Positions 1,830 through 63,860 of a stretch of 63,860 nucleotides of DNA are shown piece after piece. Position 1 is the stretch's first letter. Each line of letters begins with the position of its first letter. Position numbers and translations under genes: made by a program. Below the pieces are notes generated by a model. It saw nothing but the letters and a program-made list of their open reading frames with translations, made no database searches and was not told the DNA's origin. Source of the DNA: Chiloscyllium plagiosum (lineage: Eukaryota); the NCBI RefSeq assembly GCF_004010195.1, contig NC_057749.1, positions 15,196,436 to 15,260,295 on the forward strand, in the 5' to 3' direction.

Positions 1830-2740
1830 ACCTTATTGATATATAGAAAAGCTCAACGGGTCTGGATTGGCAGGGGGGGGGGGGGGGGGGGGGGGAGAGA
1901 GACTAGGAAAGGGGCACAGTTTGGGACCAAGACCTCCCTTTTTCAGACAGAGCTGGGGAGAATTCCTTTCTGATAGTGGATCATCAGCCTCTGGAATTCT
2001 CTTCTTGAGAAGAGTGGTGGAGGTTGGGTGACTAAACGGATTCAAGGCTGAAGTTGGTGGACATTTGATGTACAAGAGGGTGAAGGGTTATTGGAGGATT
2101 GGGGAAGTGGAGCTGACACCACAACTTGATCTTCCTGTAAGAAGGGGCAGGGTCAACGGGCTGAATGGCCTATTCCTACTGACATGCCTGATGTTGGAAT
2201 GTGCACATTGCTGACTACTTCACTCAGCTAGGCTGGATCAACTGGGTCCCTATCTACTGGGAACCGGAGAGGACCTGATTGAAAACCATAACCTGCGCTC
2301 AGCTCGGAGAGGGATGGTGCAGTGATGGGAGTGCGTGGAAGTCAGGACAAAGCCTCACAGGTCAGTGTAAGGAAGAAACAATTCCAAACTGAAACAAGGA
2401 GTGACTTCTTCAGAGAGTGATTTCTCCACCACCTGATATGGCAGAGGGTCAACTGACTGAGGTTTGGATTCTGAGGAAGGGTCACTGGACCCAAAATGTC
2501 AACTGTTTCTCTCCCCACAGATGCTGCCTGACCTGCTGAGTCTTTTCAGCAATTTCCGCTTTTTTTCACCGAATATGTTTAAGAAAGAACGTGATTTGCA
2601 GAGGCTAATGGTATCAAAGTGTATTGGGGGAAGGGAGAGTCAGGGGGGCGTGCAAGGGTTGATGTTGGGATAGAGGGTCAACCATTATGGAGGCAAGAGT
2701 TCTAGGGGCCAAAAGGCCGACAGCTGCTGCTACTTTCTAG
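1830..2740 (+). mobile_element. Two decayed CR1 3' fragments, the second interrupted by a PLE end (2465-2565)
   Basis: ctctggaattctctt...gtggtggagg and ggctgaatggcctattcct tail motifs; the insert carries CTGAGGAAGGGTCACTGGACCC...GATGCTGCCTGACCTGCTG. Confidence 0.6.
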
Positions 2741-3199
2741 GATTCTGTTGTGAAATGAAATTGGCATGAGCGTAGGTCATTGAAATATGCTGCACATTCC
2801 CCTCAGTGCCCATGACATGAGACATTCCTACTGCCATCTGGATCACATTTGCACCTTCCTACTTTCTCTCTCTCTCTCACATACACACACACACACACAA
2901 TCACATGTGCATTCCGACGCAGGCCTGTGTAACCGCAGCAACTGTGACCCTGGGTCCCAGATGTCTAAAAACTTGTCATGTCTCCTCCATATCCCCCTCC
3001 TGGACCGAGATCTCAATTTCAGCCCAACTTCAGGTGTGTTCAGGCACTTCTCCACCAGGGGGCAGAGATGTTTAAAAAAGCTCCATTCATTTCAATGCAC
3101 CTAGTTTATTTCTCTGACTAACTCCAGGTTTGTTAAAGTAAAGAGATATCGTCACGGATATTCACAGAAACATAAAGCCACCTTCCACACTGAGCCTGA

Positions 3200-3322
3200 A
3201 AGTAAAGCTCCCTCTCCAATTTTAAACAGAAAGTAAAGCTCTCGCATCATTGTTCCCCATCAAACACTCCCAGGACAGGGACAGCATGAGGTTAAGATAC
3301 AGAGTGAAGTTCCTCTACATTT
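3200..3322 (+). repeat. Dispersed ~68-bp satellite unit (AAAGCTCCCTCTACACTGTCCCCCATCAAACACTCCCAGGACAGGGACAGCA...)
   Basis: The same unit occurs reverse-complemented in tandem at 15820-15988 and 20780-21045. Confidence 0.8.
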
Positions 3323-3427
3323 TCCACAGGGCTCACTAAAAAGTCTTGCATTGATATAGCAGCTATATTCAAGCCAAGGATATTCTAAAGCACTTTACAT
3401 CGAATTAAATATTTTTTGAACCATACT

Positions 3428-3929
3428 TAGATTAGACTCCTGACATTGCAGAAACAGGCTCTTCGGCCCAACAAGTCCACACCGGGCTGTTTTCATGGAG
3501 CATCAGAGGCTGAGGGGTGACCTTATAGAGGTTTACAAAATTATGAGGGGCATGGATTTTGGAGGGATATGGGCCGGGTGCTGGCAGGTGGGACTAGATT
3601 GGATTGGGATATCTGGTTGGCATGGACGGGTTGGACCGAAGGGTCTGTTTCCATTCTGTACATCTCTATGACTCGATGACCCTCCAGAGAATAACCCACC
3701 CAGACCCATTCCCCTCTGAATGATGCACCTAACACTACGGACAATTTAGCATGGCCAATTCACCTAACCTGCACATCTTTGGACTGTGGGAGGAAACCGG
3801 AGCATCCGGAGGAAACCCACGCAGACACGGGGAGAATGTGCAAACTCCACACAGACCCGAGGCTGGAATCAAACCTGGGACTCTGGTACTGTGAGGCAGT
3901 AGTGCTAACCACTGAGCCACCGTGCGGCC
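3428..3929 (-). mobile_element. HE1-type tRNA-derived SINE with a nested, oppositely oriented CR1/HER1 3' fragment (~3485-3678)
   Basis: tRNA-like head gggccgcacggtggctcagtggttagcactactgcctcacag on minus; SINE sequence stops at 3484 and resumes at 3679 around a + strand LINE tail. Confidence 0.85.
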
Positions 3930-5114
3930 CACTTATTGACTTACTGTATGAAATGCAATGACCAATTTGCATATAAGCTCTCACATATGATAGATGGTGT
4001 TGTTTGAGAGACAGAAATTCTCCAGAACCCTATAGATAACTCACCTACTCTGAAATTGTGCCAAGATATCTTTTGCATTGTTTCACAGGCCGGTGAGAAC
4101 CCAAGGTTAATGAAATAGTACAGCAACGCTCAGGTACAGAATTGTTGAGCTGCAGCCCGATAAAGATAGAAGATCAGAGCACAACTCAGTGATTAAGCTG
4201 GGAATTGGATGCTGGGGAAGTGAACTGGTCGAGCAGTCCCACGTGTTTGTGGACTGGCCTGCTGCTGGGCTGGACTCTGACCTGCTGGGATCTGCCTGTG
4301 CCTCTGGAGAGAATGGGAAGTTTAAAAATAAAACACACAAAGGCCGGGCTGTGTGTGAGAGATGAGGAGAGTACAACTGTGGGCCAGCTGGTGACAGAAT
4401 GACATCAGTTCTTGTGGAGGGTTGGGGAGGGGGGTTTAAAGCTTTTGGTTATGACTGTTCCACATCCAGTTAACGTATGTCAAACTATGGGCTTCGAAAT
4501 AGCTAGGTTCAGAGAACAGCTTACAACTTCTTACAACTGTCTGACTTCAGGTTTTAATGTTGGTGTCTCCCTCCTCTCACTCACTCCTCCCTCCCTCCTC
4601 CTACATCTCACCTTCTCCAACTGTCGACGGTTCTGCTAATTACTTGCTGCACTTTTAATCCACCCACCTTCCCCCCACCCCCACCCCCCGCCCCCCACCA
4701 CCACCTTCCACTTTCTCTTCGAAAGCCCTGATCAATCTCATGTACAAATTCACTGTGAAAAATGTAAACACATCCTGTTTCTCCTGACCCTCACCACCAC
4801 CCCCAAGCCCAACCCACGGAGAATAACAATTCCACTGTTTCACCACCGGACTCTAAGCCTCACAGCCTGTTTCTCAATCGGCTGAGGAAATATTCAGGTG
4901 AGGAGAGACAGGGTGGACTGCACTTGTATTCACTGGAGCTCAGAAGAATCAGAGTGGACCTCAGTGAAAGATATTAAACTCTGACAGGGCTGGACAGACT
5001 GGACACAGGTATATCCATTTTAGGGCCTGAACACCAGCTTCCATGTCCTTTACTCACCTCCCCCCCCCCCCCACCCCAGGCCCCCCCGTTGCCCTAGGCT
5101 CCCCTCCGCCCCAG

Positions 5115-5555: not shown

Positions 5556-6499
5556 ATATCAATTCAATTCATCAAGCGTGCTTTTAGCTGCCTCACCTTC
5601 TCTCCCTCTGCGCTCCATCTCCACCTATCCGCTCACTCTTTCCTCACACTTCCCCCACCCCCACCCCTCCGCTGGACCCCCTCGTCCCCAAACACAACCC
5701 AAACTTCTGCAGCAGTTATAGATCAAACTTTGTAACAAACTTACAAACCGGCATTCTGAGTGAACCAGCAAAAGGTATCTACCTCAACGCTGACACAATC
5801 TCCACGATATCAGAGTAGTCAGTTAAGGATATGAGTGAGGCAGCTCCCTGCTGGTAAGTGGTGGCTGCAGGTATGGGTACAACAATTAAAAAAACACTTG
5901 GACAGGTACATGGACAGGAAAGGTTTAGAAGGATATGGGTGAAACACAGGTAAGTGGGACTAATTGAGTTTGGGAAACTTAGTCAGCATATATGAGTCGG
6001 ACCGAAGGGTCTGTTTCCATGCTCTATGACTAAGTTTTATTTAAGGCGAAGTTGCATTTTATTTAAGTGATTGATGTTTTAAATAAAAGCATTACAGTGA
6101 TGTGTATACCCCCTGCATTGCACTTCAATTACTCAGTTTGTATTTTTACATTGTAGATCTCTCGATCAACCAGCATATTTGATTAACCCATACTTCTGGT
6201 CCCATGGGGACCCGTTAATTTTAAAAATTTGCTTTCCCACCGTTTGCTAGTTACTATCAGTTCCAAAGACCAGTCACTGGACTCGAAACATTAAATCTAC
6301 TTTCTACTTCCGCAGATGTTACCAGGCCTGCTGAGCTTCTCCAGCTATTCTGGATGCAGTGAAGATATTTCCCCTGATGAGGACTCGGTAACCATGAGTC
6401 CCAGTCTCAGCGAGATTCCAGGTAAACCGTTTAGCACGGAGATGAGGAAGCATTTCTTCCCTCAGAGGGTGGGGAGCCTGTGGAATTCTCCACTGTTGG

Positions 6500-7130
6500 T
6501 CCCAGAAATGAAAAGCTTAACATTAGAGGAACATTTGAGGACTCTGGGTCTATACTTGATGGAATTGAGAAGGATGAGGGGAGGGGGGGGGGGGGTCTAA
6601 TTAAAATATACAGAATACTGAATGGCCTGAAGATGTTTCCATTGGTAGGACAGACTAGGACCCAAGGGCACAGCCTTGGAGTAAAGGGAAGACCTTATAG
6701 AATGGAGATAAGGAGAAATGTCTTCAGCCAGAGAGTGGGGAATCTATGGAATTCATTGCCAAAGGTGGCTGGGAGGCCAGGTCATTGAGTGTATTTAAAA
6801 CAGAGACGGATAGGTTCTTGAGTACCAAGGGGATCAAGGGTTCCATGGAGAAAGCGAGAGAATGGGGTTGAGAAACTTATCAGAGCTGAAAATGTGTTGC
6901 TGGAAAAGCGCAGCAGGTCAGGCAGCATCCAAGGAGCAGGAGAATCGACGTTTCGGGCATGAGCCCTTTTTCAGGAAGGGCTGCGGCGCTTTTCCAGCAA
7001 CACATTTTCAGATTCGATCTCCAGTGTCTGCCGTCCTCACTTTCTCCTTGAGAAACTTATCAGCCATGACTGAATGGCAGAGCAGGCTCAATGGGCTGAA
7101 TGGCCTAATTTATGCTCCAATATTTTATGG
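6500..7130 (+). mobile_element. CR1 3' fragment containing a PLE-derived fold-back insert (6884-7047)
   Basis: LRTLGLY...RRMRG / FSQRVGNLWNSLP; insert flanked by the 16-bp direct repeat TTGAGAAACTTATCAG. Confidence 0.85.
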
Positions 7131-10385: not shown

Positions 10386-11832
10386 AGAGAAAGGAACCAC
10401 ATTTCCCAGCACCAACGACAAGACAGCAACCAAAAACGCTGCTGAGACATCCTGAAAACAGAGGCTGCGCAGCCAGAGATCAGGATCAAACCTGGAACGC
10501 TCTGGGCTGGAGCCAGCAGTGCCTTTCCTTACTGCTGGCTCTCTCCGGTTCACCGAGAGCCCTCTGCTCTTGTTTAAATGATATTCCTTGTTGGCCAACC
10601 CTCAGCTGTTTAATCGCCTCCCCCATCATCTCAGCTCAACAATAGCGGGAGGGAACTGAGCCAGAGACGGCCGAAAGACTCAAGGCTAGGGCCTTTCCTG
10701 GAGATTGAGTGATCATGGATGGTCCACTCGCTAACCAGTCCATGCCTAAGGGATCAACTTGATTAGCCATGGAAAATGCACGGTTACAGGGGGTGGGTCT
10801 GCGTGGGATACTCTTTAGAGGGTCAGGGTTGACTTGATGGGCTGAATGGCCTGCTTTCACACTGTAGGGATTCTATGAACGGTCACTTGGAAGAGGCATC
10901 AAGTCAGACAGGAGACAATACCCACCCAGAGACAGAGACACATAAGGGCTTGTAGGACATCTCTTGGCTGGTTAAGTCAGTGAGATCAGCAGCAGAGAGA
11001 ACGATTATTTCAACAGAACAGACGGGGCGGCTCAGTCCGAGGATGAGGGAAGTACTCCATTAGTCTGCATTGTCTTGTGTGTTTAGGCAATTGGATGTCA
11101 GTTTGCACGGCCATCAATTACAAAGCTTTTTCTCACTCCGAGCTGCACAGTGAACCGTACACATTGCACAACCCAACAGATGACAGTGGACAAATAAATA
11201 ACAAGCCCCTGAATAACAATATAAATTATCCTGTACAGAATGTTCCAACCGCCATTAGTCAAGGTCCAGTGAGCCCACCGCAATGACAAGGGTGGGGGCC
11301 ATTAAAGGCTCCATTGTGTGACAGTGGGGGGGGGGGGGTGGGGGGGCAGAGCGCCCGGGGTGTGGGTATTGTCACCAGCGAATGTGCACTCAGTGGCTCC
11401 GCACTGAAATGAAGCATCACACGACGGGAATATCTCCCCAACAACCCCAAACTGTGGGAGCGCGGGGCGCAGGGCTGGAGCTGATGGATTACTCATTGCC
11501 CCCCGCCCCCCCGAAGGGGGTTGGGGATCCTGGTTGTGGGCTCTGTTCCTGATTGCCAGGCCGGGAGGGTGAAAGGACACTGCTTCCATCATCTGCGTGA
11601 CAAGACACACGTGAGCAGCAGGAATCCAAACATCAGAGAAACACTGCACTGGGAAACCCCAGGGAGATGTACCCTCTTCCCCAGGGACCAGGCGCATGCA
11701 ACAACATGTGAACAAACGCAAAAACAGTCTCAGAACAAACAGGAGGCTGCTCAGTATAAGCAACGTGCTTCACTGGACACGGGAAAGCTAGGAAAAGTCC
11801 CTCTCTACCTGCCTGGATTAACACTGCATGGG

Positions 11833-13896
11833 CCTACATACACACGTGTGCGCGTGCCTACATACACACGTGTGCGCGTGTCTACATACACACGTGTGCG
11901 CGTGTCTACATACACACGTGTGCGCGTGTCTACATACACACGTGTGCGCGTGTCTACATACACACGTGTGCGCGTGTCTACATACACACGTGTGCGCGTG
12001 TCTACATACACACGTGTGCGCGTGTCTACATACACACGTGTGCGCGTGTCTACATACACACGTGTGCGCGTGTCTACATACACACGTGTGCGCGTGTCTA
12101 CATACACACGTGTGCGCGTGTCTACATACACACGTGTGCGCGTGTCTACATACACACGTGTGCGCGTGTCTACATACACACGTGTGCGCGTGTCTACATA
12201 CACACGTGTGCGCGTGTCTACATACACACGTGTGCGCGTGTCTACATACACACGTGTGCGCGTGTCTACATACACACGTGTGCGCGTGTCTACATACACA
12301 CGTGTGCGCGTGTCTACATACACACGTGTGCGCGTGTCTACATACACACGTGTGCGCGTGTCTACATACACACGTGTGCGCGTGTCTACATACACACGTG
12401 TGCGCGTGTCTACATACACACGTGTGCGCGTGTCTACATACACACGTGTGCGCGTGTCTACATACACACGTGTGCGCGTGTCTACATACACACGTGTGCG
12501 CGTGTCTACATACACACGTGTGCGCGTGTCTACATACACACGTGTGCGCGTGTCTACATACACACGTGTGCGCGTGTCTACATACACACGTGTGCGCGTG
12601 TCTACATACACACGTGTGCGCGTGTCTACATACACACGTGTGCGCGTGTCTACATACACACGTGTGCGCGTGTCTACATACACACGTGTGCGCGTGTCTA
12701 CATACACACGTGTGCGCGTGTCTACATACACACGTGTGCGCGTGTCTACATACACACGTGTGCGCGTGTCTACATACACACGTGTGCGCGTGTCTACATA
12801 CACACGTGTGCGCGTGTCTACATACACACGTGTGCGCGTGTCTACATACACACGTGTGCGCGTGTCTACATACACACGTGTGCGCGTGTCTACATACACA
12901 CGTGTGCGCGTGTCTACATACACACGTGTGCGCGTGTCTACATACACACGTGTGCGCGTGTCTACATACACACGTGTGCGCGTGTCTACATACACACGTG
13001 TGCGCGTGTCTACATACACACGTGTGCGCGTGTCTACATACACACGTGTGCGCGTGTCTACATACACACGTGTGCGCGTGTCTACATACACACGTGTGCG
13101 CGTGTCTACATACACACGTGTGCGCGTGTCTACATACACACGTGTGCGCGTGTCTACATACACACGTGTGCGCGTGTCTACATACACACGTGTGCGCGTG
13201 TCTACATACACACGTGTGCGCGTGTCTACATACACACGTGTGCGCGTGTCTACATACACACGTGTGCGCGTGTCTACATACACACGTGTGCGCGTGTCTA
13301 CATACACACGTGTGCGCGTGTCTACATACACACGTGTGCGCGTGTCTACATACACACGTGTGCGCGTGTCTACATACACACGTGTGCGCGTGTCTACATA
13401 CACACGTGTGCGCGTGTCTACATACACACGTGTGCGCGTGTCTACATACACACGTGTGCGCGTGTCTACATACACACGTGTGCGCGTGTCTACATACACA
13501 CGTGTGCGCGTGTCTACATACACACGTGTGCGCGTGTCTACATACACACGTGTGCGCGTGTCTACATACACACGTGTGCGCGTGTCTACATACACACGTG
13601 TGCGCGTGTCTACATACACACGTGTGCGCGTGTCTACATACACACGTGTGCGCGTGTCTACATACACACGTGTGCGCGTGTCTACATACACACGTGTGCG
13701 CGTGTCTACATACACACGTGTGCGCGTGTCTACATACACACGTGTGCGCGTGTCTACATACACACGTGTGCGCGTGTCTACATACACACGTGTGCGCGTG
13801 TCTACATACACACGTGTGCGCGTGTCTACATACACACGTGTGCGCGTGTCTACATACACACGTGTGCGCGTGTCTACATACACACGTGTGCGCGTG
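11833..13896. repeat. Minisatellite, 86 x 24 bp (TCTACATACACACGTGTGCGCGTG)
   Basis: 2064 bp / 24 = 86 units; only the first two units differ (CCTA for TCTA). Confidence 0.98.
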
Positions 13897-13897
13897 T

Positions 13898-15060
13898 CTC
13901 TCCGCTATTTCCTCAGCCACCTCCCTCAGAACTCTAGGATGTAGCCCATCAGGGCCAGGAGATTTATCAATTTTAAGACTTTTAGCTTTTCTAGCACTTT
14001 CACTTTTGTAATGGCAACCAGACTCAACTAAGCCCCCGACTCCCTTTAATTGTTGGGATATTACTCATGTCTTCCACTGTGAAGACTGATGCAAAGTACT
14101 TATTAAGTTCTCCTGCTATTTCCTTATCTCCCATCTCTAGGCTTCTAGCATCAGTTTGAAGTGGCCCAATGTCTACTCTTGCCTGTCGTTTGTTTCTTAT
14201 GTATTGAAAGAAACTTTTACTATCATTTCTAATATTACTGGCTAGCCTAACTTCACATTTGATCCTCTCCTTCCTTATTTCTCTCTTTGTTATCCTCTGT
14301 TTGTTTTTGTAGCCTTCCCAATCTTCTGATTTCCCAGTGCTCTTGGCCACTTTATAGGATCTCTCTTTTACTTTAATAGATTTCCTGACTTCCTTTGTCA
14401 GCCGTGGCTGTCTAATCCCTCCCTGGATAATCTTTCTCTTCTTGGGGATGAACCTCTGTACAGTGTCCTCAATTTTACCCACAAACTCCTGCTATTTTTG
14501 TTCTACTGTCTTCCCCGCTAGGCTCTGCTTCCAGTCTATTTTTGTCAGTTCCTCTCTCATGCCCTCATAATTACCTTTATTTAACTGTAACACCATTATA
14601 TCCAATTTTGCCTTCTCTCTTTCAAACTGCAGACTGAACTCTACCATATTATGATCGCTGCTTCCTAAGTGTTCCCTTACTTTAAGATTTTTTAGAAAGT
14701 CTGGTTCATTACATAACACTAGGTCTAGAATAGCCTGCTCCCTTGTGGGCTCCATGACAAGCTGTTCCAAAAAGCCATCCTTTCTTTGGATCCACTGAAT
14801 TCCCTTTCTTTGGATCCACTGGCAACATTATTTACCCAGTCCACCTGCATATTGAAGTCTCCCATGATCACTGTGACCTTGCCTTTCTGACATGCCTTCT
14901 CTATTTCCCGGTACATGTTGCGCCCCTGGTCCTGACCACTGTTAGGAGGTCTGTACATAACTCCCACTATGGTTTTTTTTGCCTTTGCGGTTCCTCAATT
15001 CCACCCACACAGACTCCACATCATCCGACGCTATGTCATTCAGTGCCATAGATTTAATTT
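13898..15060 (-). mobile_element. CR1 LINE ORF2 internal fragment (APE endonuclease to pre-RT region), frameshifted
   Basis: GVMYRPPNS...IMGDFN, PTREQAILDLVL...HLGSSDHNMVEF, LNKYFASVFT and KSPGPDGLHPRVLREVAEEI across three frames. Confidence 0.95.
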
Positions 15061-15645: not shown

Positions 15646-16760
15646 ATGTTACACACACACCCACGCACAGACACATACACATCCCCACACACCAACACAA
15701 ACCCTCACAGACACCCCTGCAGACAGACACACCCACAACCACACCCATACAGACACACACCCACAGACACCCCCACAGATACGCGCACTGACACACACAC
15801 ACACACACACACTCACCACTATCTAACCTTGTGCTGTCTTTGTCCTGGGAATGTTTGATGGGGGGGACAGTGTAGAGGGAGCTTTACTCTGTATCTAACT
15901 ACGTGCTGTCCCTGTCCTGGGAGAGTGTGATGGGGGGACAGTGTAGAGGGAGCTTTACTCTGTATCTAACCCTGTGCTGTCCCTGTCCNNNNNNNNNNNN
16001 NNNNNNNNNNNNNNNNNNNNNNNNNNNNNNNNNNNNNNNNNNNNNNNNNNNNNNNNNNNNNNNNNNNNNNNNNNNNNNNNNNNNNNNNNNNNNNNNNNNN
16101 NNNNNNNNNNNNNNNNNNNNNNNNNNNNNNNNNNNNNNNNNNNNNNNNNNNNNNNNNNNNNNNNNNNNNNNNNNNNNNNNNNNNNNNNNNNNNNNNNNNN
16201 NNNNNNNNNNNNNNNNNNNNNNNNNNNNNNNNNNNNNNNNNNNNNNNNNNNNNNNNNNNNNNNNNNNNNNNNNNNNNNNNNNNNNNNNACGTGCACACTG
16301 ACACACACACCCACCGACACACAAACGCGCACACTGACACACACGCACCCCCACAGATAGACACAAAATCACAAACACTGACACACACACACCTCTGCAG
16401 ATAGACACATAATCGCGCACACTGACACACACACACCCTCAGATAGACACAAAAACACGAACACTGACACACACACCTCTGCAGATAGACACACAATCGC
16501 GCACACTGACACACACACACACCCAGACACACAAACGCGCACTGACACACACACACCCTCACAGATAGACAAACGCGCACACTGACACCCACACACAGAC
16601 AAACGTGCACACTGACACACACACACCCACCCACAGACAGACACGCAAACGCACACACTGACACACACACCCACAAACAGACACACAAACCCGCACTGAC
16701 ACACACCCTTCCACAGATACACACACAAGCATGCACACTGAGACATACAAACAAACAAAC
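15646..16760. repeat. CA-rich degenerate tandem repeats plus 68-bp satellite flanking an N-gap (15989-16288)
   Basis: Recurring gcacactgacacacacac...cagatagacac units. Confidence 0.85.
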
Positions 16761-18390: not shown

Positions 18391-19444
18391 TAAAACGTTC
18401 CCAAACTGTGAGCCGTGACCCCCCCACTGGAAGCCACAGGCTCCACGGCCTTCAGAATGGTTGCAAAGACTTCCTAAAACGAGAGAATGCCTTTCAGACA
18501 GTGTGGTCTGATTGCTGACATCAGCTGAGCCTAAGAACGGCTTGATCGCCGTTTAGTGCCCACACCCCTGCTGGTCAAACCCTCGGACCCCTCCCCAGCC
18601 TGCTCAACAACTATTCTCTGGAAAGGTCACTGGATCCAAAACGTTAACTCTGTTTTCTCTTCACAGATGCTGCCAGACCTGCTGAGCTTTCCCAGCAATT
18701 TCCAGTTTTGTCTCCCCAACAACTCCAATTTTCACCCAAAACATGAGCCATTAAAATGGGATCACAGCAGAAAGAGGGGTTTGGACCCCATGGTCCCATA
18801 TTACTCTGCAGGAACTCCATCAAACAGAACGGTCACTTCACCAGGGGAGTGGACACTGGGGCGAGCGTGGTAGGTTTTAAGCAGTTTGAACAGAGGGCCA
18901 TGCAGACTTTCATGGGAGTAAAGGACAGTCCTTGACATCTGAAGGCCTGGTGGCCAATGATGGCGTAAGGAGGCGGGGCTACACAGAGTGTCCAATGGGC
19001 GAAGCACAGAGATCTCAGAGCATCGCCACCTGTAGGTGGTGAACAACAGCAGGATGCAGAGCCATGGAACTGGGAAACAAGGAAAACAATGCCAAGTTCT
19101 TGACAGGCTGAGAGCCAACGAGAGATCAGTACCAATAGGACTTACTACCCACCCTGGTCTGAATGATACTGAAGGGGGTCAGGGCTGTTGTGGAGATGAG
19201 GATGCTAAAATCCATTTCAAACAGAACCTTTACAATGGAAGCTTGCATTAAATAAGTGCAGCTCGAAATGTAATCAAAGCTCTCAAGGCATAAGCCCAGT
19301 GACTTACCCACACACTGTACAGGTTTAACCCACAGAGCCAGAGATCTTCCTATTCAGATAACAGGAGTAAAGCACCTACCCACTTGTCCAGGTGGGCACC
19401 CCACTTGACTATAGACTCACCCACTCACCTAGGCAGAGGTGGGT

Positions 19445-19650
19445 ACTGCAGATGCTGAAGATTAGAGTCAAGATTTGAGTGGTGCTGGAAAAGCACAGCA
19501 GGTCTGGCAGCATGTGAGGAGCAGAAAAATCAACACTTCGGGCAAAAACCCTTCATCAGGAAACCGGATTTTACATGAAACGTTGATTTTCCTGATCCTC
19601 GGATGCTGCCTGACCTGCTGCGCTTTTCCAGCGCCACTCTAATCTAGACT
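19445..19650. mobile_element. PLE-derived fold-back insert within a ~45-bp tandem repeat
   Basis: Inverted arms agtggtgctggaaaagcacagcaggtc / gacctgctgcgcttttccagcgccact; flanked by copies of ccaggtgggcaccccacttg.ct..agactcaccca (19380-19430, 19660-19750). Confidence 0.8.
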
Positions 19651-26840: not shown

Positions 26841-27013
26841 GAGAAAGGGAGGACTGCAGATGCTGGAGATCAGAGTAGAGTGTGTGGCGCTGGAAAAAGC
26901 ACAGCAGCTCAGGCAGCTTCTGCGGAACAGGAGAGTCGACGTTTCGGGCGTAAGCTCTTCATCAGGAATGCTGCCTGAGTTGCTGCGCTTTTCCAGCACC
27001 ACACTCTCGACTC
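26841..27013. mobile_element. PLE-derived fold-back insert with hammerhead-like core
   Basis: Minus strand CTGATGA-A-GAGC-TTAC-GCCC-GAAAC-GTCGAC; inverted arms gctggaaaaagcacagcagctcaggcagc / gctgcctgagttgctgcgcttttccagc. Confidence 0.8.
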
Positions 27014-27310: not shown

Positions 27311-27433
27311 AGGCTAAAGTGAGGACTGCAGATGCTGGAAATCAGAGTTTAGATCAGAGTGGTGCTGGAAAAGCGCAGCAGGTCAGGCAGCATCCGAGGA
27401 GCAGGAAAATCGACATTTCGGACAAAAGCCGTC
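27311..27433 (-). mobile_element. Short PLE 3' end
   Basis: Same terminus family; flanked by ATTACTCAG(G/C)AAGT at 27297-27310 and 27434-27447 (probable TSD). Confidence 0.75.
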
Positions 27434-27904
27434 ATTACTCAGCAAGTGCTATCCAAGGACATTGATGGATCCATGAAGGAATCTGAACATGTAAATGACA
27501 ACACTAAGTCCCACCACGGACTAGCCTACACGGAGCAGATGGATATTAGCAGGATGGAGTCAGGAGTCATTTAGAACATCACAGTGTGGGGAGAGGAGGG
27601 AAAGTGAAGTGAAAATACTGCCAAATTAACTTGATTGAGAGTTCAAAATATAAAAGATCCAAATAACACCCACTTTCTAAATTAATTATATATTTCCTGA
27701 AGCTCTGATTAAGCAGCCAATACTACTCAGGAACTTTAACAAAAGCAAACTAGAAAATCAAAGTGTCCTGAGCCAGATTCGCATTCAACTGGAACCAAAA
27801 GAGATTCACTGCAGCAAATAAAAAAGCAGCTTCAAATTTGAAGGAACAGTCAGCAACCTTGCATATTAAAATGTTAATCCAGAGCAAAGGTTCCCAATTT
27901 TGGG

Positions 27905-28020
27905 GGTCTGAAGAGTCATCAAGACTCGAAACATTAGCTTGCTCTCTCCCCACGGATGCTGTCTAACCCACCGTGATCTCCAGCATTTGTTGTTTTCAGT
28001 ACAGGTCCCAGCATCTGCAG
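27905..28020 (+). mobile_element. Short PLE 3' end, second subfamily
   Basis: CTGAA-GAGTC-ATCAA-GACTC-GAAAC...ggatgctg...ccagcatctgcag; matches 42350-42450. Confidence 0.7.
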
Positions 28021-35290: not shown

Positions 35291-35724
35291 ATGCAAGGGG
35301 TGATGAATGCTTCCTGTTATTGAGATGGGTTCTGAGGAAGGGTCACTGGACATGAAACGTTAGTTCTACTTTCTCTCCAAACGTGCTGCCTGACCTGCAT
35401 GAACGCATTGAATACATGGTTCTTTTTGGAACATTTTAAAGAAAGACCATGCCATTCAAACCTCACATTTCATATTGCCAGTGTGTCCCAGAGCATTGAA
35501 CAGCTAATTAACAGTAATCACAGAAGGACATACCTTTGACCAAATAATAAATATTAGCGAGGGCAGTGTGATAACTCATGTTTAAGATGGAGTCCTGGGT
35601 CTAATACATGGACTCGAGCGCACAGAGGGCATCTTGGTTTTAACTTGCATTCAAGCCAGTGCAACACTGTCAGTATGGCCTTGATTGAGAGCGACCACAT
35701 ACTGGACAATGGATTCAGAAAGCT

Positions 35725-35949
35725 GTTAAGATTAGAGTGGTGCTGGGAAAGCAAAGCAGGTCAGGCAGCATCAGAGCAGGAAAATTCGACATTTCGGGCA
35801 AAAGCCCTTCATCAGGAATGAGGCTGGGATTCAGATTTTGCTGATTTTGCTGAAGCTCCTCGGATGCTGCCTGAACTGCTGTGCTCTTCCAGCACCATTG
35901 ATCCAGAATCTGGTTTCCAGCATCTGCAGTCATTGTTTTTACCCTGCTG
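35725..35949. mobile_element. PLE-derived fold-back insert
   Basis: Minus CTGATGA-A-GGGC-TTTT-GCCC-GAAAT; inverted arms; flanked by GGATTCAGAA(A/G)GCT at 35711 and 35950. Confidence 0.8.
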
Positions 35950-41428: not shown

Positions 41429-41859
41429 ACATCTCCCCCCATCACCAGCCCGCTCCCAGCTCTAGCAGAGCTCCCTCCGAGCGAACAGCAAGGTGCAGTG
41501 AAACCTCAGCACAACAGAGGCAACCTCTGACAAGCGCTCTCCGAACCGAAACCTAACTCTGTTACTCTCTTCACAGATGCTGCCAGAACTGAGGAGCATT
41601 TCCAGCATTTCGTTTTTACTTGAGAATTCTAAACTAAAAACATGGTCGCAAAAGCCAGGCAGCGGACTTTGGGAAGAGCTTTTGACAGCAATCCCCTTGG
41701 ACAGTGAAGACTGACGGCAAGATGTCAGAGCAGGATGAGGCCAGTCCACTCTGAATGTCTGCTCCGACATTCAATCAGTTCATGGCTGATCAACTCCACA
41801 ATCCTGCTATTCCCATTACCAGGGAAAACAGAACAACAAGAAACAAGCCACCGAAATTG

Positions 41860-42452
41860 TCCTACAGGTGCAATGCAAGTGTGGACAGCAGCTATCCCCC
41901 CAACACAATGCAGTACTTGCAGAAGTATAACCCTGACCTTCCTGTAGCTGGTCTTTTTAATCCAGACATGCCCCATGTGTCTGTGCTCAGCATGCTGCGG
42001 TGTTCCAGTGAATCTCACCACAAACTAGAGGATCAACGCCTCATCTTCAGACCAGGCACTTTACAAATTGCTGGACATAATATTGAGTTCAGCACCTTCA
42101 GGCCGTGAACCCTGTCCCCTCCGTTCTCTTTTAGCTTCACTGATTGTAGTCTCTGTCACCGTGTTCTCTCTCCCTCCACCTGGGAACCTGTCTCTTCATT
42201 ACAGGCTGGCAGTTAGACACACCACTGTTCTGCCATTCTCACATCCCGATCACTTAGTCTGCACCAACACCACCCATTCTCCACCTGCATTCCAACCTCC
42301 CTCCAACTGTTGCATAAATGCTCCCCCCCCCCCCCACACTTCACATCAGCCCTGGTGAAGAGTCATCTGGACTCAAAACGTTAGCTCGCTCTCTCTCCGT
42401 GGATGCTGCCTGACCCGCTGCGATCTACAGCACGTTTTGTTTTCAGTACAAT
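41860..42452 (+). mobile_element. Penelope-like element 3' remnant with 3' UTR and hammerhead-like end
   Basis: PDLPVAGLFN...HKLEDQRLIFRPGTLQIAGHNIEF resembles the PLE GIY-YIG C-terminus (consensus-like LEEQHLIFRLGTLQPxGLN); followed by CTGGTGA-A-GAGTC-ATCTG-GACTC-AAAAC. Confidence 0.8.
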
Positions 42453-49310: not shown

Positions 49311-50577
49311 ACAACAATTACTGAATTATAATTCATCCTGTTAAGTGCTTCAGGATGCTTTAATATAGGGAGCTATGTAAATGCATGTATGAATTAGAAT
49401 TATTCCCTTGTTATGAATAGACATCACCCCAACATGAATTTGAGTCTATTGTTTATATTGCCTTTGGCTCTTCAATGGACAATACTGCATTGTCTTTTGG
49501 AAGGATCAATAAAGTTTTTTCGGCGGATCTAAGCGGTGTTGAGGTACTCTGCAACCAATTCTGATGAAAGGTCACTGAAACCAGACATTTTGACTATTTC
49601 CAGCATTTTCTATTTTTACTTCAACCTATGTCTTGGCCAATAATTCTCTGACAAGTGGCAAAATATTCGCTCACTCATTCATTCGCTGTTTGTGTGAGGC
49701 CTTGCTCCATGAATAATTTTGCACCTGCATTTCGAATCATGGATGGAGTCACTGAATGGTTATAGCACAGATGGGGACCACTTGGTCCATTGTGTACATG
49801 CCAGCTCTCTGCAAGAGTAACTCAGCTTGTCCCACTCCCCTGCCTTTCCCTCACCGTTCTGAGAATACATCTTCTTCACAGACTGATCCAAATCTCTTTC
49901 AAACACCTGACTTGAACCTGTCTCTACCACACTCTCAGGCAGTACATTCTAGATCCCAACCACTCTTATGTCAAAGTTTCCCCTAATGACACTATTCCTT
50001 CATTTGCCAATCACTCCAATTCGGAATTCTTCCACCAATGGGAACAACCTCCCCCTGGTTGTCAGCGTAACAATAGTGAGTGCGCTTCAAAAGTAATTAT
50101 TGATTTCAAAGTGTGTCACGATCCCTAGGGGTGTGGAAGGATACTCCATAAACTCAGGTTTTGATTCCTTATCACCTGAAAGGGCACATATTCCCCTAGT
50201 TTTCAGTTGGTAACAACCTGCTGCACATTTCCAAAGTTTTCTCTTTAAATTTTAACAAAAAATAAAATTGCAAGAGAAACTTCTTTGTTAATTGTTAATT
50301 TAAGGACAATTTTCTCCACTGAGAAAGTGATTTGGACTGGAGTTCCCCAAGTACTAGATGCCTTCTCATTGGCAAGACAGGGGTCAGTTTAGCTCAGTTG
50401 GCTGCACAGCTCATTCACAATGCAGAATGAGTGCTAACAGCAGGGGTTCAAATCCTACACCAGCTACAGTTACGGTGAGGGTTGTTATTTACCCATCAAC
50501 CAATCAATTCTCGAGCCAATATCACATTTCTGATTGTGGGAGCTGGCTATGCTCAAATTGGCTGTTGTGTTATCTTT

Positions 50578-51975
50578 GCTGAAAATGTGTTGCTGGAAAA
50601 GCGCAGCAGGTCAGGCAACATCCAAGGAGCAGGAGAATCGACATTTCGGGCATGAGCCCTTCTTCAGGAATGAGGAAAGTGTGCCCGGCAGGCTAAGATA
50701 AAAGGTAGGAAGGAGGGACTTGGGAGAGGGGCGTTGGAAATGCGNNNNNNNNNNNNNNNNNNNNNNNNNNNNNNNNNNNNNNNNNNNNNNNNNNNNNNNN
50801 NNNNNNNNNNNNNNNNNNNNNNNNNNNNNNNNNNNNNNNNNNNNNNNNNNNNNNNNNNNNNNNNNNNNNNNNNNNNNNNNNNNNNNNNNNNNNNNNNNNN
50901 NNNNNNNNNNNNNNNNNNNNNNNNNNNNNNNNNNNNNNNNNNNNNNNNNNNNNNNNNNNNNNNNNNNNNNNNNNNNNNNNNNNNNNNNNNNNNNNNNNNN
51001 NNNNNNNNNNNNNNNNNNNNNNNNNNNNNNNNNNNNNNNNNNNNNNNNNNNNNNNNNNNNNNNNNNNNNNNNNNNNNNNNNNNNNNNNNNNNNNNNNNNN
51101 NNNNNNNNNNNNNNNNNNNNNNNNNNNNNNNNNNNNNNNNNNNNNNNNNNNNNNNNNNNNNNNNNNNNNNNNNNNNNNNNNNNNNNNNNNNNNNNNNNNN
51201 NNNNNNNNNNNNNNNNNNNNNNNNNNNNNNNNNNNNNNNNNNNNNNNNNNNNNNNNNNNNNNNNNNNNNNNNNNNNNNNNNNNNNNNNNNNNNNNNNNNN
51301 NNNNNNNNNNNNNNNNNNNNNNNNNNNNNNNNNNNNNNNNNNNNNNNNNNNNNNNNNNNNNNNNNNNNNNNNNNNNNNNNNNNNNNNNNNNNNNNNNNNN
51401 NNNNNNNNNNNNNNNNNNNNNNNNNNNNNNNNNNNNNNNNNNNNNNNNNNNNNNNNNNNNNNNNNNNNNNNNNNNNNNNNNNNNNNNNNNNNNNNNNNNN
51501 NNNNNNNNNNNNNGTGGAGGTGGGGTTGGTGGGGGGTGTGGACCTGATGAGGGAGTCACAGAGGGAGTGGTCTTTTTGGAATGCTGATAGGGGAAGGGAG
51601 TGAAATATATCCCTGGTAGTGGGATCCGTTTGGAGGTGGCGGAAATGCGACGGATGATATGATGTATATGGAGGTTGGTGGGGTGGTAGGTGAGGACCAG
51701 TGGGGTTCTGTCCTGGTGGCGATTGGAGGGGCGGGGCTCAAGGGCGGAGCGGGAAGTGGAGGAGATGTGGTGGAGAGCATCGTCGATCATGTCTGGGGGG
51801 AAATTGTGGTCTTTGAAGAAGGAGGCTATCTGGGTTGTTCGGTATTGGAACTGGTCCTCCTGGGAGCAGATGGGCGGAGACGAAGGAATTGGGAATATGG
51901 GTTGGCATTTTTACAGGGGGCAGGTTGGGAGGAGGTGTAGTCTAGGTAGCTGTGGGAGTCGGTCAGTTTATAGTA
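50578..51975 (-). mobile_element. Penelope-like element, 3' portion spanning an N-gap (50745-51513)
   Basis: IDDALHHISSTSRSALEPRPSNRHQDRTPLVLTYHPTNL (PLE RT-EN linker-like); terminus carries CTGAAGA-A-GGGC-TCAT-GCCC-GAAAT at ~50668-50642. Confidence 0.8.
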
Positions 51976-53225: not shown

Positions 53226-54407
53226 AAGATGGGGGTAGAGATGAAAATGTGGCTAGCATTTGGATAGTGCACTAACTGACACACCTAGGAGATCAGGGAA
53301 CTTGGAAGAATGGTGTGGGGATCTCCAGATCTGTAAACAAATCCGTCTTTCTCAAAAACATTAAGACACTCTTTGCATGCAGCACTTGCAAGTCTCGAGC
53401 ATTATGTTCTTCTTCACTTTCCAGCCTGATGATAGTTTCAATCCAAGTGCCCCAAACTCCACCAGTGACAGGACAAAGAGGTAGATCCTGAAATCATCCC
53501 ACCAAGCAGACACAAAGCCAAGCCACACTGGCCATCTGACTAACTGAGCCAACCAGCCTCCTCCCCCAAGAGCTCTGAGTTACATGTATATTGCAATCTG
53601 GAGCTAAGTGTATTCATGGCAGATATTTCTATTTCAATCCATCACATGGTTAATCAGGAATCTCTTCTGCCCTTTGGATGTGTGTTGGATGAATTTCCAA
53701 CTTGGTCTTCAACTTGTTTGGCCGTGTTATGATCACAGCATTCCTTGGACATGCAGTTTTGCAGTGGGATTGAAATCTAGAGCATCTGGCTCAGAGGAAG
53801 GGACACTACCCATTGCAGCCCAGAAGGCCTGTCCACAGTATTATTATTTGGTAGGAAGTCCGTAATTACTCATCCTTTTGAAATAAGGTCCTTTCAGCAA
53901 AATGCTGTGAGAATTACTGAACAAGATTGATCTTTGGGTTATTTTCATTTTGTGTTTCCTCTATTTCTTTCTAAAAACATTTCTCTGTTCTTGTATTTTT
54001 ATGATGTCATACATACATTTTGATTGTGCTTCTCCATTGATACTATCTTCAAACTGTCTATTGTTCTTCAATTCACTGCTGAAATCTACTGTGTATTTAC
54101 TACGCCTTTGGAAATATTTTCCCTTTTTTATGTCCTGCTGTTTCACAGAGCAAGGATTATAGGCTTTTGCATTCAATTCCAAAGACAACAGAACAGAAAA
54201 CTGAAATCCTTCCTTCCCCTCTGATCTCCAACCTTTGCCAGAAGCCTTTATTTCCTTCAATTCATCAATAATCTATGGTCACTGCTCCTCTAAAAGATCT
54301 TTACTCATTCTTCCTAAAATATTCTCCCTGTTTCATGTGTCTCTATTCTACCTGATTTAAGACTTGTCTCAACTTCTCTAAGTCTTATTCGTTCTTAACA
54401 AAAAACC

Positions 54408-54545
54408 TTCTGAGGAAGGGTCACTGGACCCAAAACGTTCACTCTGATTTCTCTTCACTGATGCTGCCAGACCTGCTGAGCTTTTCCAGCAATTTCAGTT
54501 CATGTTTCTGATTTACAGCACCCACACTCCCTTCGGTTTTTACCA
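54408..54545 (+). mobile_element. Short PLE 3' end
   Basis: CTGAGGA-A-GGGTC-ACTG-GACCC-AAAAC...GATGCTGCCAGACCTGCTGAG; same subfamily as 2471, 18618, 35332. Confidence 0.75.
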
Positions 54546-61949: not shown

Positions 61950-62650
61950 TAAGAAACCTTAGAGTGCAGATTCATAGTTCCATGAAAGTAGATTTACGGG
62001 TAGACAGTGTGTTGAAAAAGGCATTTGGTATACTTACGTTTATTGGTCAGTGCATTGAATATGGGAAATCAAGTTGTGGCTGTACAGGACATTGGTTGGG
62101 CCACTTTTGGAATATTGCATGCAGTTCTGATCTCCTTCCTATCGGAGTGATGTTGTGAAACTTGAAAGGGTGCAGAAAAAATTTACAAGGATGTTGACAG
62201 GGTTGGAGGATTTGAGCTACAGGGGGAGGCTGAATAGGCTGGGGCTATTGGAGGCTGAGGGGTGACCTTTTTCGAGGTTTGTAAAATCACAAGGGGCATG
62301 GATAGGATAAATAGAGAAGGTCTTTTCCCTGGAGTGGGGGAGACCAGAACTAGAGGGCATACGTTTAGGGTGAGATGGGAAAAACTTAAAAGGGCCCTAA
62401 GGTGCAACGTTTTCACTCAGAGGGTGGTGCGTGTATGGAATGAGCTGCCAGAGGAAGTGGTGGAGGCTGGTACAATTATAACATTTAAAAGGCATCTAGA
62501 TGGATCCATGAATTTAAAGGTTTTACAGGCCCAAATGCTTGCAAATGGGACTTGATTAATTATAGATTAATTATATATATTAGTATCTGGTCAGCATGGA
62601 TGAGTTGGACTAAATGGTCTGTTTCCATGCTGTACAATCCTATGACTCTA
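61950..62650 (+). mobile_element. CR1/HER1 3' fragment with tail
   Basis: VLKKAFGILTFIGQCIEY...FTQRVVRVWNELPEEVVEAGTIITFKRHLD. Confidence 0.93.
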
Positions 62651-63156
62651 TCTTTGAAGTGACATGTCAACCCATGATATTCTAAGAGCCAGGAGTGACA
62701 CCAACTGAATGATGGCAAATAGGCACCATTTACGCCAGGCAGATTCGAGGCTCTGTCAAGGGGCTCAGCCAATCTCAATTGAAGCAGTTGTGTGACATGG
62801 TGTGAGCTCAAGGGAGCTTAGTTCAAATATTGCTGGGTTGAGAGAAAGGAAATGGTAGACTGCTGACTTAGATTATCATCCAATGAACCGAGTATCAGGA
62901 AGTACGCGATTGCAGACCCAAAGGAGCATGAGCGTAGCTCATCCTCAGAGCTCTTCACTCGGGGAACCATCACTGGCTATCATTCACCCAAAGAATAGTC
63001 ACTGAGATGAGGCATAGGTGGGTCACAGATGGTCAAATCCCGAAGCCAGCTCCTTTAGCCTTGGAAAATTGGAAGGCTGGTTAAGAAAAAGAACAATGAT
63101 GGGTGGGGATCTCACTGGTCCCACATTGTGTGTGTCATGGGGTCATCATTCTCATA

Positions 63157-63369
63157 GGAGAAACTGAGGTCTGCAGATGCTGGAGATCAGAGATGGAAAT
63201 GTGTTGCTGGAAAAGCGCAGCAGGTCAGGCAGCATCTAGGGAACAGGAGAATCGACGTTTCGGGCATCAGCCCTTCTTCAGGAAGAAGGGCTAATGCCCG
63301 AAACATCGATTCTCCTGTTCCCTAGATGCTGCCTGACCTGCTGCGCTTTTCCAGCAACACATTTCCATC
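63157..63369. mobile_element. Young PLE-derived fold-back insert with 14-bp TSD
   Basis: ~90-bp inverted arms (63190-63279 / 63282-63371, 2 mismatches); TCATCATTCTCATA at 63143-63156 and 63370-63383. Confidence 0.9.
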
Positions 63370-63604
63370 TCATCATTCTCATAACCAAGCCTGCATCCAG
63401 AGTAATCCTTCTCAGTGATCTTTAGGTCTCACATACCTTCAGCTAATCCTTTTCCTTTCACATCACCTCCATGTCAGAAACCATCATGCCTACAATGGGT
63501 GCACCTCACCCCAGAAAGGATGAGGGAGGTGGTGAGAAGAGGAAGGATGGGTGGCTCCAGAGAGACGCTGGTCTCCATCTCATAACCTTACCAGTTGTAG
63601 TGCT

Positions 63605-63860
63605 GGGTTAGAGTGGTGCTAAAAAAGCACAGCAGTTCAGACAGCATCCGAGGAGCAGGAAAATCGACGTTTCGGGCAAAAGCCCTTCATCAGGAATACA
63701 GGCAGAGAGCCTGAAGGGTGGAGAGATAAGAGAGAGGATGGTGGGGGTGGGGAGAAAGTAACATAGAGTACAATAGGTGAGTGGGGGAGGGGATGGAAGT
63801 GATATGCCAGGGATGAGGGTGGAGTGGATAGGTGGAAAAGAAGATAGGCAGGTAGGACAA
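63605..63860 (-). mobile_element. Penelope-like element 3' end running off the window
   Basis: Minus CTGATGA-A-GGGC-TTTT-GCCC-GAAAC-GTC at 63693-63666; same layout as 50578-50744. Confidence 0.8.

Follow-up and report, generated by a model that had tools for sequence, protein, structure and literature searches.

A 63,860-nt stretch of the genome of Chiloscyllium plagiosum (NCBI RefSeq assembly GCF_004010195.1, contig NC_057749.1, positions 15,196,436 to 15,260,295 of the forward strand; hereafter the window) contains dispersed hammerhead-ribozyme-like motifs, 15 of which had been noted in a first-pass annotation of the same DNA. With a probability of roughly 0.86, we interpret these loci as the 3'-terminal (pseudo long terminal repeat, pLTR) modules of several lineages of endonuclease-bearing Penelope-like elements (PLEs), each module consisting of a minimal type-I hammerhead without helix III, a conserved downstream block and an optional extension. 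This reading is carried by the anatomy of the module, its covariation, its link to open reading frames (ORFs) with reverse transcriptase (RT) and GIY-YIG nuclease motifs, its copy numbers and the decay of its copies. The elements are of a known kind and involve no new mechanism; what is new is the host group and the lineages.

When the flanks were read, all 15 loci proved to be copies of one repeat module of approximately 100 to 135 nt, which extends well beyond the two short boxes by which they had been recognized. The module was described from an alignment (A1) of 57 distinct copies and 43 columns, taken from the window, from other retrieved genome loci and from twenty arbitrary 10-kb genome pieces. 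It begins with a 4-nt strand of helix I, followed by the box C/U3-U4-G5-A6-N7-G/A8-A9, an unpaired A, a helix II of 4 to 5 bp closed by a loop of 4 to 5 nt, the sequence G12-A13-A14-A15.1-C15.2-G16.2-U16.1-H17 and the second 4-nt strand of helix I; helix III is absent. At the DNA level, GAAAC is followed by GTC or GTT, a pyrimidine-rich spacer of about 15 to 20 nt and then, 15 to 20 nt past GAAAC, a near-invariant tail block, GATGCTGCC(T/A)GACCTGCTG-N-G-N-TTTCCAGCA.

In the alignment, U4, A9, A13 and A14 were present in all 57 rows, G5 in 56 and A6 in 54, and 27 of the 57 rows were fully canonical. G10.1 was found in 54 rows and H17 was G in only two, and the sole free position of the core, N7, was U, A, G or C depending on the lineage. 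The unpaired nucleotide between A9 and G10.1 was A in 54 of the 57 rows and its column was never a gap. The first-pass annotation had called this extra A atypical; it is a hallmark of the published minimal hammerhead of PLEs (PMC4209133). C15.2 and G16.2 are adjacent in all lineages, giving a palindromic ACGU that is predicted to allow a dimer. Self-complementary hexamers after GAAAC had also been noted earlier, and here only part of the claim holds: GTCGAC and ATCGAT are single-copy variants or products of CpG decay, but a lineage-wide palindrome does exist, namely ACGU (15.1 to 16.1), which is extended to AACGUU in two lineages.

At least five lineages are visible in the alignment. Lineage F1 combines helix I AUUC/GAUU with the core CUGAUGA, helix II GGGC-UUUU-GCCC and the triplet GUC. 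Lineage A has helix I AUUC paired with GAUU or GAAU, the core CUGAAGA, helix II GGGC/GCCC with the loops UUAU, UCAU and CUGU, and the triplet GUC, and an unnamed variant carries the core CUGAUGA, helix II GAGC/GCUC and either GUC or GUU. In lineage c, helix I is AGUU/AACU, the core is CUGAGGA, helix II is GGGUC/GACCC and the triplet is GUU. Helix I is AGCU/AGCU in both N2 and N1; the former has the core CUGAUGA, helix II GAGUC/GACUC and GUU, and the latter has the core UUGACAA, helix II GGGUC/GACUC and GUC. The best-kept ORFs accompany lineage N1. The stems listed in the first-pass annotation (GGGC/GCCC with the loops TTTT, TCAT and TGAT; GGGTC/GACCC; GAGTC/GACTC) were all found as described. 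Helix I, which it had considered weak or not evident, is present with 4 bp and covaries between lineages (AUUC/GAUU or GAAU, AGCU/AGCU, AGUU/AACU).

Pairing in the named structure exceeded that of the controls. In the alignment, 85.2% of the 527 cells were paired, compared with 78.6 ± 0.7% after shuffling (0 of 500 shuffles reached the observed value), and pairing dropped to 18 to 44% when the partners were slid by 1 to 3 columns. Changes on both sides of a pair occurred in 60 cells, versus 24.5 ± 3.8 in the shuffled alignments (again 0 of 500), and compensatory change was detected in 6 of the 10 pairs, distributed across helix I, helix II and the tertiary pair 3-8. Helix II was 94.2% paired and showed both-side changes in 2 of its 5 pairs (10.2-11.2: GC 38, GU 7, AU 7; 10.4-11.4: CG 29, UA 17), with G10.1-C11.1 (columns 15 and 29) being GC in 42 rows, GU in 12 and other in 3. 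Helix I was paired in 72.7% of cells and showed both-side changes in 3 of its 4 pairs (2.2-1.2: UA 40, CG 10; 2.1-1.1: CG 30, UA 16). The core pair 3-8 was CG in 48 rows, UA in 6, UG in 1 and other in 2. Genome-wide, U3/A8 was found in 1,169 of the 1,249 exact copies (94%) matching Y3/R8 in the N1 context; among the first 100 listed, 8 rows were C3/A8, and none of the matches listed had G8. These results support the earlier statement that the stems differ between subfamilies and nevertheless stay paired.

Penelope-like coding sequence, copy number and copy ends

The first-pass annotation had placed PLE coding remnants upstream of the motif at two positions, and both were confirmed by tblastn with the ORF of a better-kept genomic copy (locus L022). 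The remnant at 41932..42102 (plus strand) corresponds to the C-terminus of the GIY-YIG nuclease (63% identity, E 1.5e-15), with a stop codon at 42105, and that at 51546..51775 (minus strand), upstream of the hammerhead copy at 50668, corresponds to the RT-nuclease linker region (E 3.8e-13). Between this remnant and the hammerhead, a run of N (50745-51513) hides most of the PLE body; the window has three more such runs (15989-16288, 34594-35068 and 43364-43863), and masked stretches likewise break the ORFs of the genomic loci L021 and L023. A search of the source genome of the window (3.56 Gb) with the decayed window frame at 41755-42105 yielded 39,887 first-look candidates, and all of the 150 that were scored had E values of 6.1e-11 or lower.

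In longer copies of the module, the upstream sequence turns coding, and the motif lies approximately 250 to 400 nt past the nuclease stop codon. The four loci with the longest open frames (L021 to L024) contain a frame of 335 to 361 amino acids, partly masked in two of the four, in which the nuclease part reads LVY...C..C..LYIGET...R..EH, the C-terminal part reads ...LGTLQPAGLN.EF.NFR and a C-x4-C-x2-C linker precedes the nuclease. The upstream frame of L022 contains PKIHK...PGRPIV and YIDD-type motifs and matched RVT_1 with 30.1 bits against a cut-off of 29.6 (E 4.8e-7). The neighbours in a protein atlas were clusters combining HTH_animal, RVT_1 and GIY-YIG (scores 0.87 to 0.88), which we take as a lead only. 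Judged from these sequence motifs, the module belongs to an element with the architecture of endonuclease-bearing PLEs.

Neither RT nor GIY-YIG was detected in a Pfam scan of 118 of the 274 stop-to-stop frames of at least 70 amino acids in the window (the 150 longest minus 32, nearly all of which lie in simple-repeat blocks at 11.3-14.1 kb and 46.3-48.5 kb), a result that we attribute to the advanced decay of the coding remnants in the window. Among the ORF-bearing loci examined, no full-length element with both terminal repeats was found, all of them being 5'-truncated or partly masked. A start of the ORF inside the motif, as in the element of Anolis, was considered and rejected, because the box contains no AUG in three of four lineages and the frame of lineage F1 stops after 17 codons.

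The module is highly repeated. A 30-mer of the 63693 copy had 98,580 copies in the genome within 2 mismatches (the reversed control had 0), the tail block with at most 1 mismatch had 367,893, and the exact motif CTGANGA-A-GGGC-N4-GCCC-GAAAC-GTC had 87,506. Within the window, the motif is fully canonical in the 63693 copy only; the 63281 copy has an intact core and has lost its helix I partner to a foldback, and the remaining copies carry G12 to A, C15.2 to U, C11.1 to U, G8 to A, damage to the box or deletions. Departures from the consensus in the alignment cluster at the two CpG steps of the motif, with 11 to 12 rows each at positions 11.1, 12, 15.2 and 16.2, a pattern that would be expected of neutral decay in a methylated genome. 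The first-pass proposal that several shark PLE lineages each keep a ribozyme is supported in its main point, as lineage-specific variants with paired stems exist; "keep" is a fitting word for the source elements only, since nearly all copies in the window are dead.

The ends of the copies were characterized in an unbiased sample made up of the window and the twenty arbitrary 10-kb genome pieces (249,424 non-N bases), which holds 58 tail-block matches, 2 or 3 of them apparently spurious. At the 3' side, 19 of the 58 tail blocks are followed by an extension of approximately 35 nt with CCAGCATCTGCAG at a fixed distance, and the rest end in an AC-rich stretch past CCAGCA. Minimum free energy (MFE) folds show an inner hairpin, UGCUG/CAGCA, enclosed by pairing of CAGCAUCUG in the extension with CAGAUGCUG or CGGAUGCUG, where the tail block begins. 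At the 5' side, the sample contains 32 modules of the GGGC or GAGC type. Arms of head-to-head foldbacks account for 17 of them, and 6 run on into the 3' untranslated region (3'UTR); another 6 have their start at ATTC-CTGA or no more than about 10 nt from it, in one case with a short inverted arm, and 3 begin inside the motif. Depth drops just upstream of 63697, the first base of helix I in the 63693 copy: word counts in contigs fall from 3.44 to 0.50 and then 0.09 million (about 7-fold at 63697/63698), and RNA read depth at the same step falls from about 464 to 78 and then 33 (about 6-fold).

Neighbouring modules in the sample are mostly inverted, with 13 head-to-head pairs 47 to 143 nt apart, whereas only two pairs closer than 1 kb share a strand (401 and 826 nt). 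In three foldbacks of lineage N1, five of the six arms start no more than one base from AGCU-UUGACAA, and the start of the remaining arm lies two or three bases further in; 0 to 10 nt of filler separate the arms. One of these (L048; G000:C2:13584420-13584730, positions 1-311) is flanked on both sides by a 13-bp direct repeat and carries the extension of approximately 35 nt on its left arm only; it resembles the product of one insertion that left a target-site duplication. The copies display the insertion traits of PLEs, that is, 5' truncation, an adjacent inverted 5'-truncated copy and an optional tail of 30 to 40 bp at one end; inverted 5'-truncated partner copies and one-sided tails are among the PLE traits described in PMC8557442. 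Two observations are possibly new: the 5' end of most copies coincides exactly with the first base of helix I, and about half of the copies are head-to-head foldbacks. The protein of the Anolis PLE cuts and extends both DNA strands (Frangieh et al. 2024, PMC11167929), and we infer that such an activity would produce head-to-head foldbacks.

The foldbacks themselves (63152-63385 and others) form near-perfect hairpins of approximately 150 to 230 nt and are present in poly-A reads of both strands; they could yield double-stranded or small RNAs.

Self-cleavage, alternative explanations and a possible promoter

If the modules are the 3' ends of PLEs, the source elements would be under selection for the hammerhead fold, and the genomic copies would then decay neutrally, chiefly at the two core CpGs. 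By analogy with the Anolis PLE (Frangieh et al. 2024), the downstream block may be the site at which the RT of the element starts copying, which would account for copies ending there whether or not they carry the extension. Self-cleavage of the modules, after GUC or GUU, is a prediction from the sequence of the motif, and the caution of the first-pass annotation about activity still applies. Any cutting would probably be weak and would proceed either as a dimer through the ACGU palindrome or with the help of an element protein, as published for the class, and uncut RNA would be the usual template for new copies.

Several points weigh against our interpretation. The rows of the alignment were chosen by a loose pattern of the boxes, so the conservation of the core in it arises partly by selection. 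The covarying changes come from only about five or six lineages and represent few independent events, and the shuffle control makes no correction for relatedness. Helix I pair 2.3-1.3 is a U-U mismatch in the two lineages with the most copies (35 of 57 cells unpaired), and in MFE folds the CUGAUGA box is partly paired with ACGUC, which is a competing inactive fold. No Rfam hammerhead family (types I, II and III, HH9 and HH10) was found in the window at the gathering score or at E values up to 10 with lax filters, and the same was true of short stretches taken around two copies, an intact one of F1 and one of N1; the matches that Rfam did give were to microRNA models of hairpin type and lay on the foldback and on simple repeats. 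For the nuclease part, GIY-YIG was the best Pfam family yet stayed below the threshold (18.1 versus 22.6 bits; E 0.0033 and 0.046). RNA reads labelled as the same species, from a poly-A single-cell library, a poorly suited type (run X19; about 2% of the run was read, giving 2,376 reads at 90% likeness or more), covered the modules on both strands and showed no pile-up of molecule starts or ends, including at the cut site; a second RNA run (X20) gave 0 matching reads. Lastly, at most 2 of 100 listed tail-block copies, as judged by eye, start near the predicted cut site, so cut RNA is at best a rare template.

The last two points are also what would be expected if the hammerhead-shaped fold were selected but worked without cutting, as a platform for RT binding or entry or as a promoter-proximal RNA element, with self-cleavage being vestigial. 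Copies include the whole motif and almost never begin at the cut site, no read ends there, and the downstream block is as strongly conserved as the core. The Anolis element offers a parallel, since its catalytic mutants insert normally in vitro and no RNA-seq ends fall at its cut site (PMC11167929), and PLE clades without hammerheads are described in PMC8557442 as proliferating well. We nevertheless consider this explanation rather unlikely, because the fixed positions are the catalytic ones (G5, A6, G12, A13 and A14, with the 3-8 pair switching jointly from C-G to U-A), H17 is never G at the level of lineages and N7 is free, a pattern that a binding platform would not need. Moreover, the Anolis motif does cut, although only when the protein is present (PMC11167929).

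A more distant prospect is that the short units constitute a separate non-autonomous family, similar to short interspersed nuclear elements (SINEs) or to retrozymes, which has borrowed a PLE tail and does not derive from PLE transcripts. We consider such an origin improbable, because each short-unit lineage seen has long copies running into the PLE 3'UTR and the nuclease coding sequence, the sample contains no head-to-tail arrays and only the 2 same-strand pairs against 13 head-to-head ones, and the units have no tRNA, 5S or 7SL head. It would, on the other hand, account for a number of tail blocks (367,893) that is enormous relative to the coding remnants and for the discrete 5' end 4 nt before the CUGA box, where depth falls about 7-fold in contigs and about 6-fold in RNA; furthermore, a 2026 preprint (Li et al.) presents animal retrozymes as non-autonomous derivatives of PLEs and reports them in its one cartilaginous fish. 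Chance resemblance, in which an abundant repeat merely happens to contain CTGANGA and GAAAC, draws on the shortness of both boxes and the lack of a match to any Rfam hammerhead model but is almost certainly wrong. It is contradicted by in-register covariation of three helices or pairs, by the full set of four additional hallmarks of the published class, by N7 being precisely the core position that varies and by the link of the motif to RT/GIY-YIG ORFs. A SINE carrying a chance motif was rejected on the evidence against these two explanations.

Returning to the modules as PLE 3' ends, we tentatively raise a further idea, itself rather doubtful, that the hammerhead lies at the very 5' end of the element transcript and that the 3' end of the PLE is a self-contained small transcription unit. 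TATAAATA is located approximately 31 nt upstream of the hammerhead in all seven long N1 copies (loci L021 to L025), an ATAAAT-like sequence is present at about -30 in N2 copies, and TTATCT is present at about -32 in the GGGC lineages. The common 5' end of the copies is an A, the first nucleotide of helix I, in a YYA(N)(W)YY-like initiator context. The upstream TATA-like box could be a core promoter aimed at this base. If so, the hammerhead would be the first approximately 35 nt of the transcript, and the 3'UTR of the preceding unit would hold the promoter, an arrangement that would account for the requirement of more than one unit for PLE activity. Any inserted 3' fragment reaching more than about 35 nt upstream of the motif could then fire short RNAs that include the site of RT entry. 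If copied in trans, from both target strands, into promoter-less units of approximately 100 to 135 nt and foldbacks, these RNAs would account for the roughly 0.8 million modules, a number extrapolated from the 58 tail matches in 249 kb, of which 2 or 3 are apparently spurious. Cutting by the hammerhead would in that case remove the capped first 32 to 35 nt.

Copies in the window and neighbouring features

The pattern CTGADGA-N4-30-GAAAC matched the window 7 times versus 1.27 expected, a count reached by 0 of 100 shuffles; six of the matches are loci of the first-pass annotation, and the seventh (372-392, minus strand) is unrelated. A covariance model (R1) of the 40-nt motif was built from the alignment, and the whole window was scanned with filters off; as copies of the window are among its source sequences, its matches indicate consistency and no independent discovery. 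The scan gave 13 matches at E values of 3e-5 or lower, namely, 12 of the noted loci and the left arm of the foldback at 63281. Matches at 27908 (E 0.28) and 49561 (E 0.45) were weak, with internal deletions in both copies, and 6265 gave no match at E values up to 1. The scattered shared motif reported earlier is therefore real, with 12 of the 15 loci found strongly, two weakly and one only as its 3' half. Five modules or arms lie beyond the noted loci, at approximately 19549-19590 (plus), 27406-27448 (minus), approximately 35862 (plus), 41476-41600 (plus) and 63274-63313 (plus).

The best match (56.5 bits, E 1.2e-12) is the intact F1 hammerhead at 63660..63699 (minus strand), which has helix I AUUC/GAUU, CUGAUGA, the extra A, GGGC-UUUU-GCCC, GAAAC and GUC. 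Its unit extends on the minus strand from 63697 down to approximately 63608, with 3'UTR-like element sequence further upstream, to the end of the window at 63860. At 63152..63385, two A-lineage units form a head-to-head foldback, an extent taken from read and contig depth, whose arms meet inside the CUGAAGA box. The right arm (63248-63287, minus strand; 51.1 bits) has an intact core and has the 5' strand of helix I replaced by the other arm, and the left arm (63274-63313, plus strand) scored 30.2 bits; the only Rfam match on this foldback was a hairpin, mir-680 (36.8 bits versus a gathering score of 104).

Five further hammerheads are on the minus strand. The A-lineage copy at 50634..50673 (55.1 bits) lies in a long copy with element 3'UTR upstream and has C15.2 changed to U by CpG decay. 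The same substitution is present in the F1-type hammerhead at 35782..35821 (54.8 bits), the right arm of a foldback whose left arm has its tail block from approximately 35862 (plus strand), head-to-head and 91 nt apart. A hammerhead with an A-C mismatch in helix II (GAGC/GCCC) at 26932..26971 (49.6 bits) is preceded by an inverted arm of approximately 38 nt, head-to-head and 47 nt apart. At 19526..19565 (43.2 bits), a decayed hammerhead with GAAGU for GAAAC forms the right arm of a foldback, the left arm of which is located at 19549-19590 (plus strand, 13.7 bits), head-to-head and 88 nt apart. The A-lineage hammerhead at 6941..6980 (49.7 bits) has G8 changed to A, which breaks the C3-G8 pair, and a short inverted arm upstream.

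On the plus strand, the N2 hammerhead at 42346..42388 (GAGUC/GACUC, helix I AGCC/AGCU; 40.6 bits) lies approximately 250 nt after the nuclease stop codon and is dead, with A6 changed to G and G12 to A. Four copies belong to lineage c: the one at 2465..2506 (GGGUC/GACCC; 41.0 bits) is dead through G12 to A and C15.2 to U, that at 54404..54445 (37.8 bits) is dead through G12 to A, that at 35326..35367 (36.0 bits) has two mismatches in helix II, and that at 18610..18651 (29.1 bits) has a damaged CUGA box. An N2-type copy at 27909..27935 has a deletion across the box and helix II (14.5 bits), and the internally deleted copy at 49555..49597 (13.7 bits) consists of the box and the 5' half of helix II followed by AAAC. 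The module 3' part at 6265..6345 retains helix II, GAAAC and a decayed tail block and has lost the CUGA box. Two of the five modules or arms absent from the first-pass annotation stand by themselves: a 5'-truncated unit at 27406..27448 (minus strand) that starts inside helix II (16.1 bits, E 0.1), and a strongly decayed plus-strand module at 41476..41600. The latter has the box CTGACAA, its tail block is at 41576, and it precedes the 42352 copy, also on the plus strand, by approximately 830 nt.

Other features of the window were also recorded. An open frame at 25308-26000 (minus strand) strongly matched the Receptor L domain (PF01030, E 9.5e-29) and is, from this match, probably an exon of a host gene of receptor tyrosine kinase type; the repeats would then sit in its introns. 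A long block of GT/AC- and CG-rich short tandem repeats at 11300-14100 is open in several frames and gave about 20 regularly spaced, sub-threshold mir-297-like matches in Rfam. A GA/CT inverted low-complexity hairpin at 46680-46840 matched many plant and animal microRNA models below threshold (the best being MIR6426, 41.4 bits versus a gathering score of 96). A weak match to a long interspersed nuclear element (LINE)-type endonuclease was detected at 14495-14827 (minus strand; Exo_endo_phos_2, E 0.0017, sub-threshold), and elsewhere in the genome the loci L005 and L023 have a clear LINE reverse transcriptase upstream of the PLE fragment.

Comparison with known systems

For specialists in ribozymes and transposons, the modules are an expected find in a host group for which no account was found: our literature search yielded no published description of PLE hammerheads in cartilaginous fish, although the supplementary tables of PMC4209133 might include one. 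Several PLE lineages of a large vertebrate genome keep the minimal hammerhead, including the rare U3-A8 core, and the copy numbers of the motif exceed those originally described as remarkable by one to two orders of magnitude. The motifs, intact in tens of thousands of cases and decayed in hundreds of thousands, constitute a natural data set for work on mutation spectra and covariation. The pattern of the copy ends is the part most worth following up. Small hammerhead variants of PLEs are also said to have been treated by Lunse et al. in 2017.

Minimal hammerheads were defined in the terminal repeats of PLEs by Cervera and De la Pena in 2014 (PMC4209133). As described there, four features emerged beyond the search descriptor, namely, covariation-rich families, an unpaired nucleotide between A9 and G10.1, the G10.1-C11.1 pair and the palindromic 15.2-16.2 step; a short helix I, a U3-A8 variant, opposite-strand pairs, solitary truncated copies and very low in vitro cleavage as dimers are also reported. 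All structural features are common to those motifs and ours, as are the location in flanking repeats and the opposite-strand pairs, which are 100 to 700 bp apart in that account. In contrast, helix II has 4 to 5 bp here and 7 to 8 bp in the Schistosoma families of PMC4209133, and the 87,506 exact motifs of one stem type exceed the approximately 4,000 in coelacanth and 9,000 in Xenopus that were called remarkable in that paper. The closest parallel to lineage N1 is the Cercyon PLE of Schistosoma mansoni, in which a U3-A8 core replaces C3-G8 (PMC4209133), as it does in the whole of that lineage; the host and the element are different, and the rarer C3/A8 form occurs here (8 of the first 100 listed).

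Animal non-LTR retrozymes (Cervera and De la Pena 2020; Li et al. 2026 preprint) resemble the short units in being non-coding, hammerhead-bearing, PLE-related and present in high copy number, and the preprint includes one chondrichthyan genome. According to these sources, however, retrozymes form head-to-tail arrays, contain full type-I hammerheads and give circular RNAs, whereas the present units have no helix III and are either dispersed or arranged head-to-head. A viroid hammerhead (De la Pena and Flores 2001, cited in PMC4209133) likewise has a single unpaired base after A9 and before G10.1, but that motif is a full type-III ribozyme of unrelated sequence and context.

A further comparison is with the Poseidon element of Anolis carolinensis (PAc), which has a hammerhead at the pLTR-ORF junction, an internal RT start and a tail of 30 to 40 bp, the tail being explained by two adjacent internal RT start sites in an AC-rich stem-loop downstream of the hammerhead (PMC11167929). 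Its hammerhead cuts only when the protein is present, catalytic mutants still insert and no RNA-seq ends were found at the site (PMC11167929). PAc differs from the element of C. plagiosum in that its ORF starts at stem II, whereas here an AUG occurs in the box in one lineage only, with a frame stopping after 17 codons. In addition, the C-x4-C-x2-C linker, as a single motif, points to the Neptune/Nematis rather than the Penelope/Poseidon type as these are described in PMC8557442. In both systems, copies end at a fixed distance past the hammerhead at one of two sites, with an optional tail between them (19 of 58 here), the AC-rich end region lies in a predicted stem-loop, uncut RNA is the apparent template and no RNA-seq ends fall at the cut site. 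By this analogy, the two RT starts of PAc may map onto the two copy ends of the present element, and the sharp 5' and 3' ends of its copies bear on how PLEs begin and end reverse transcription.

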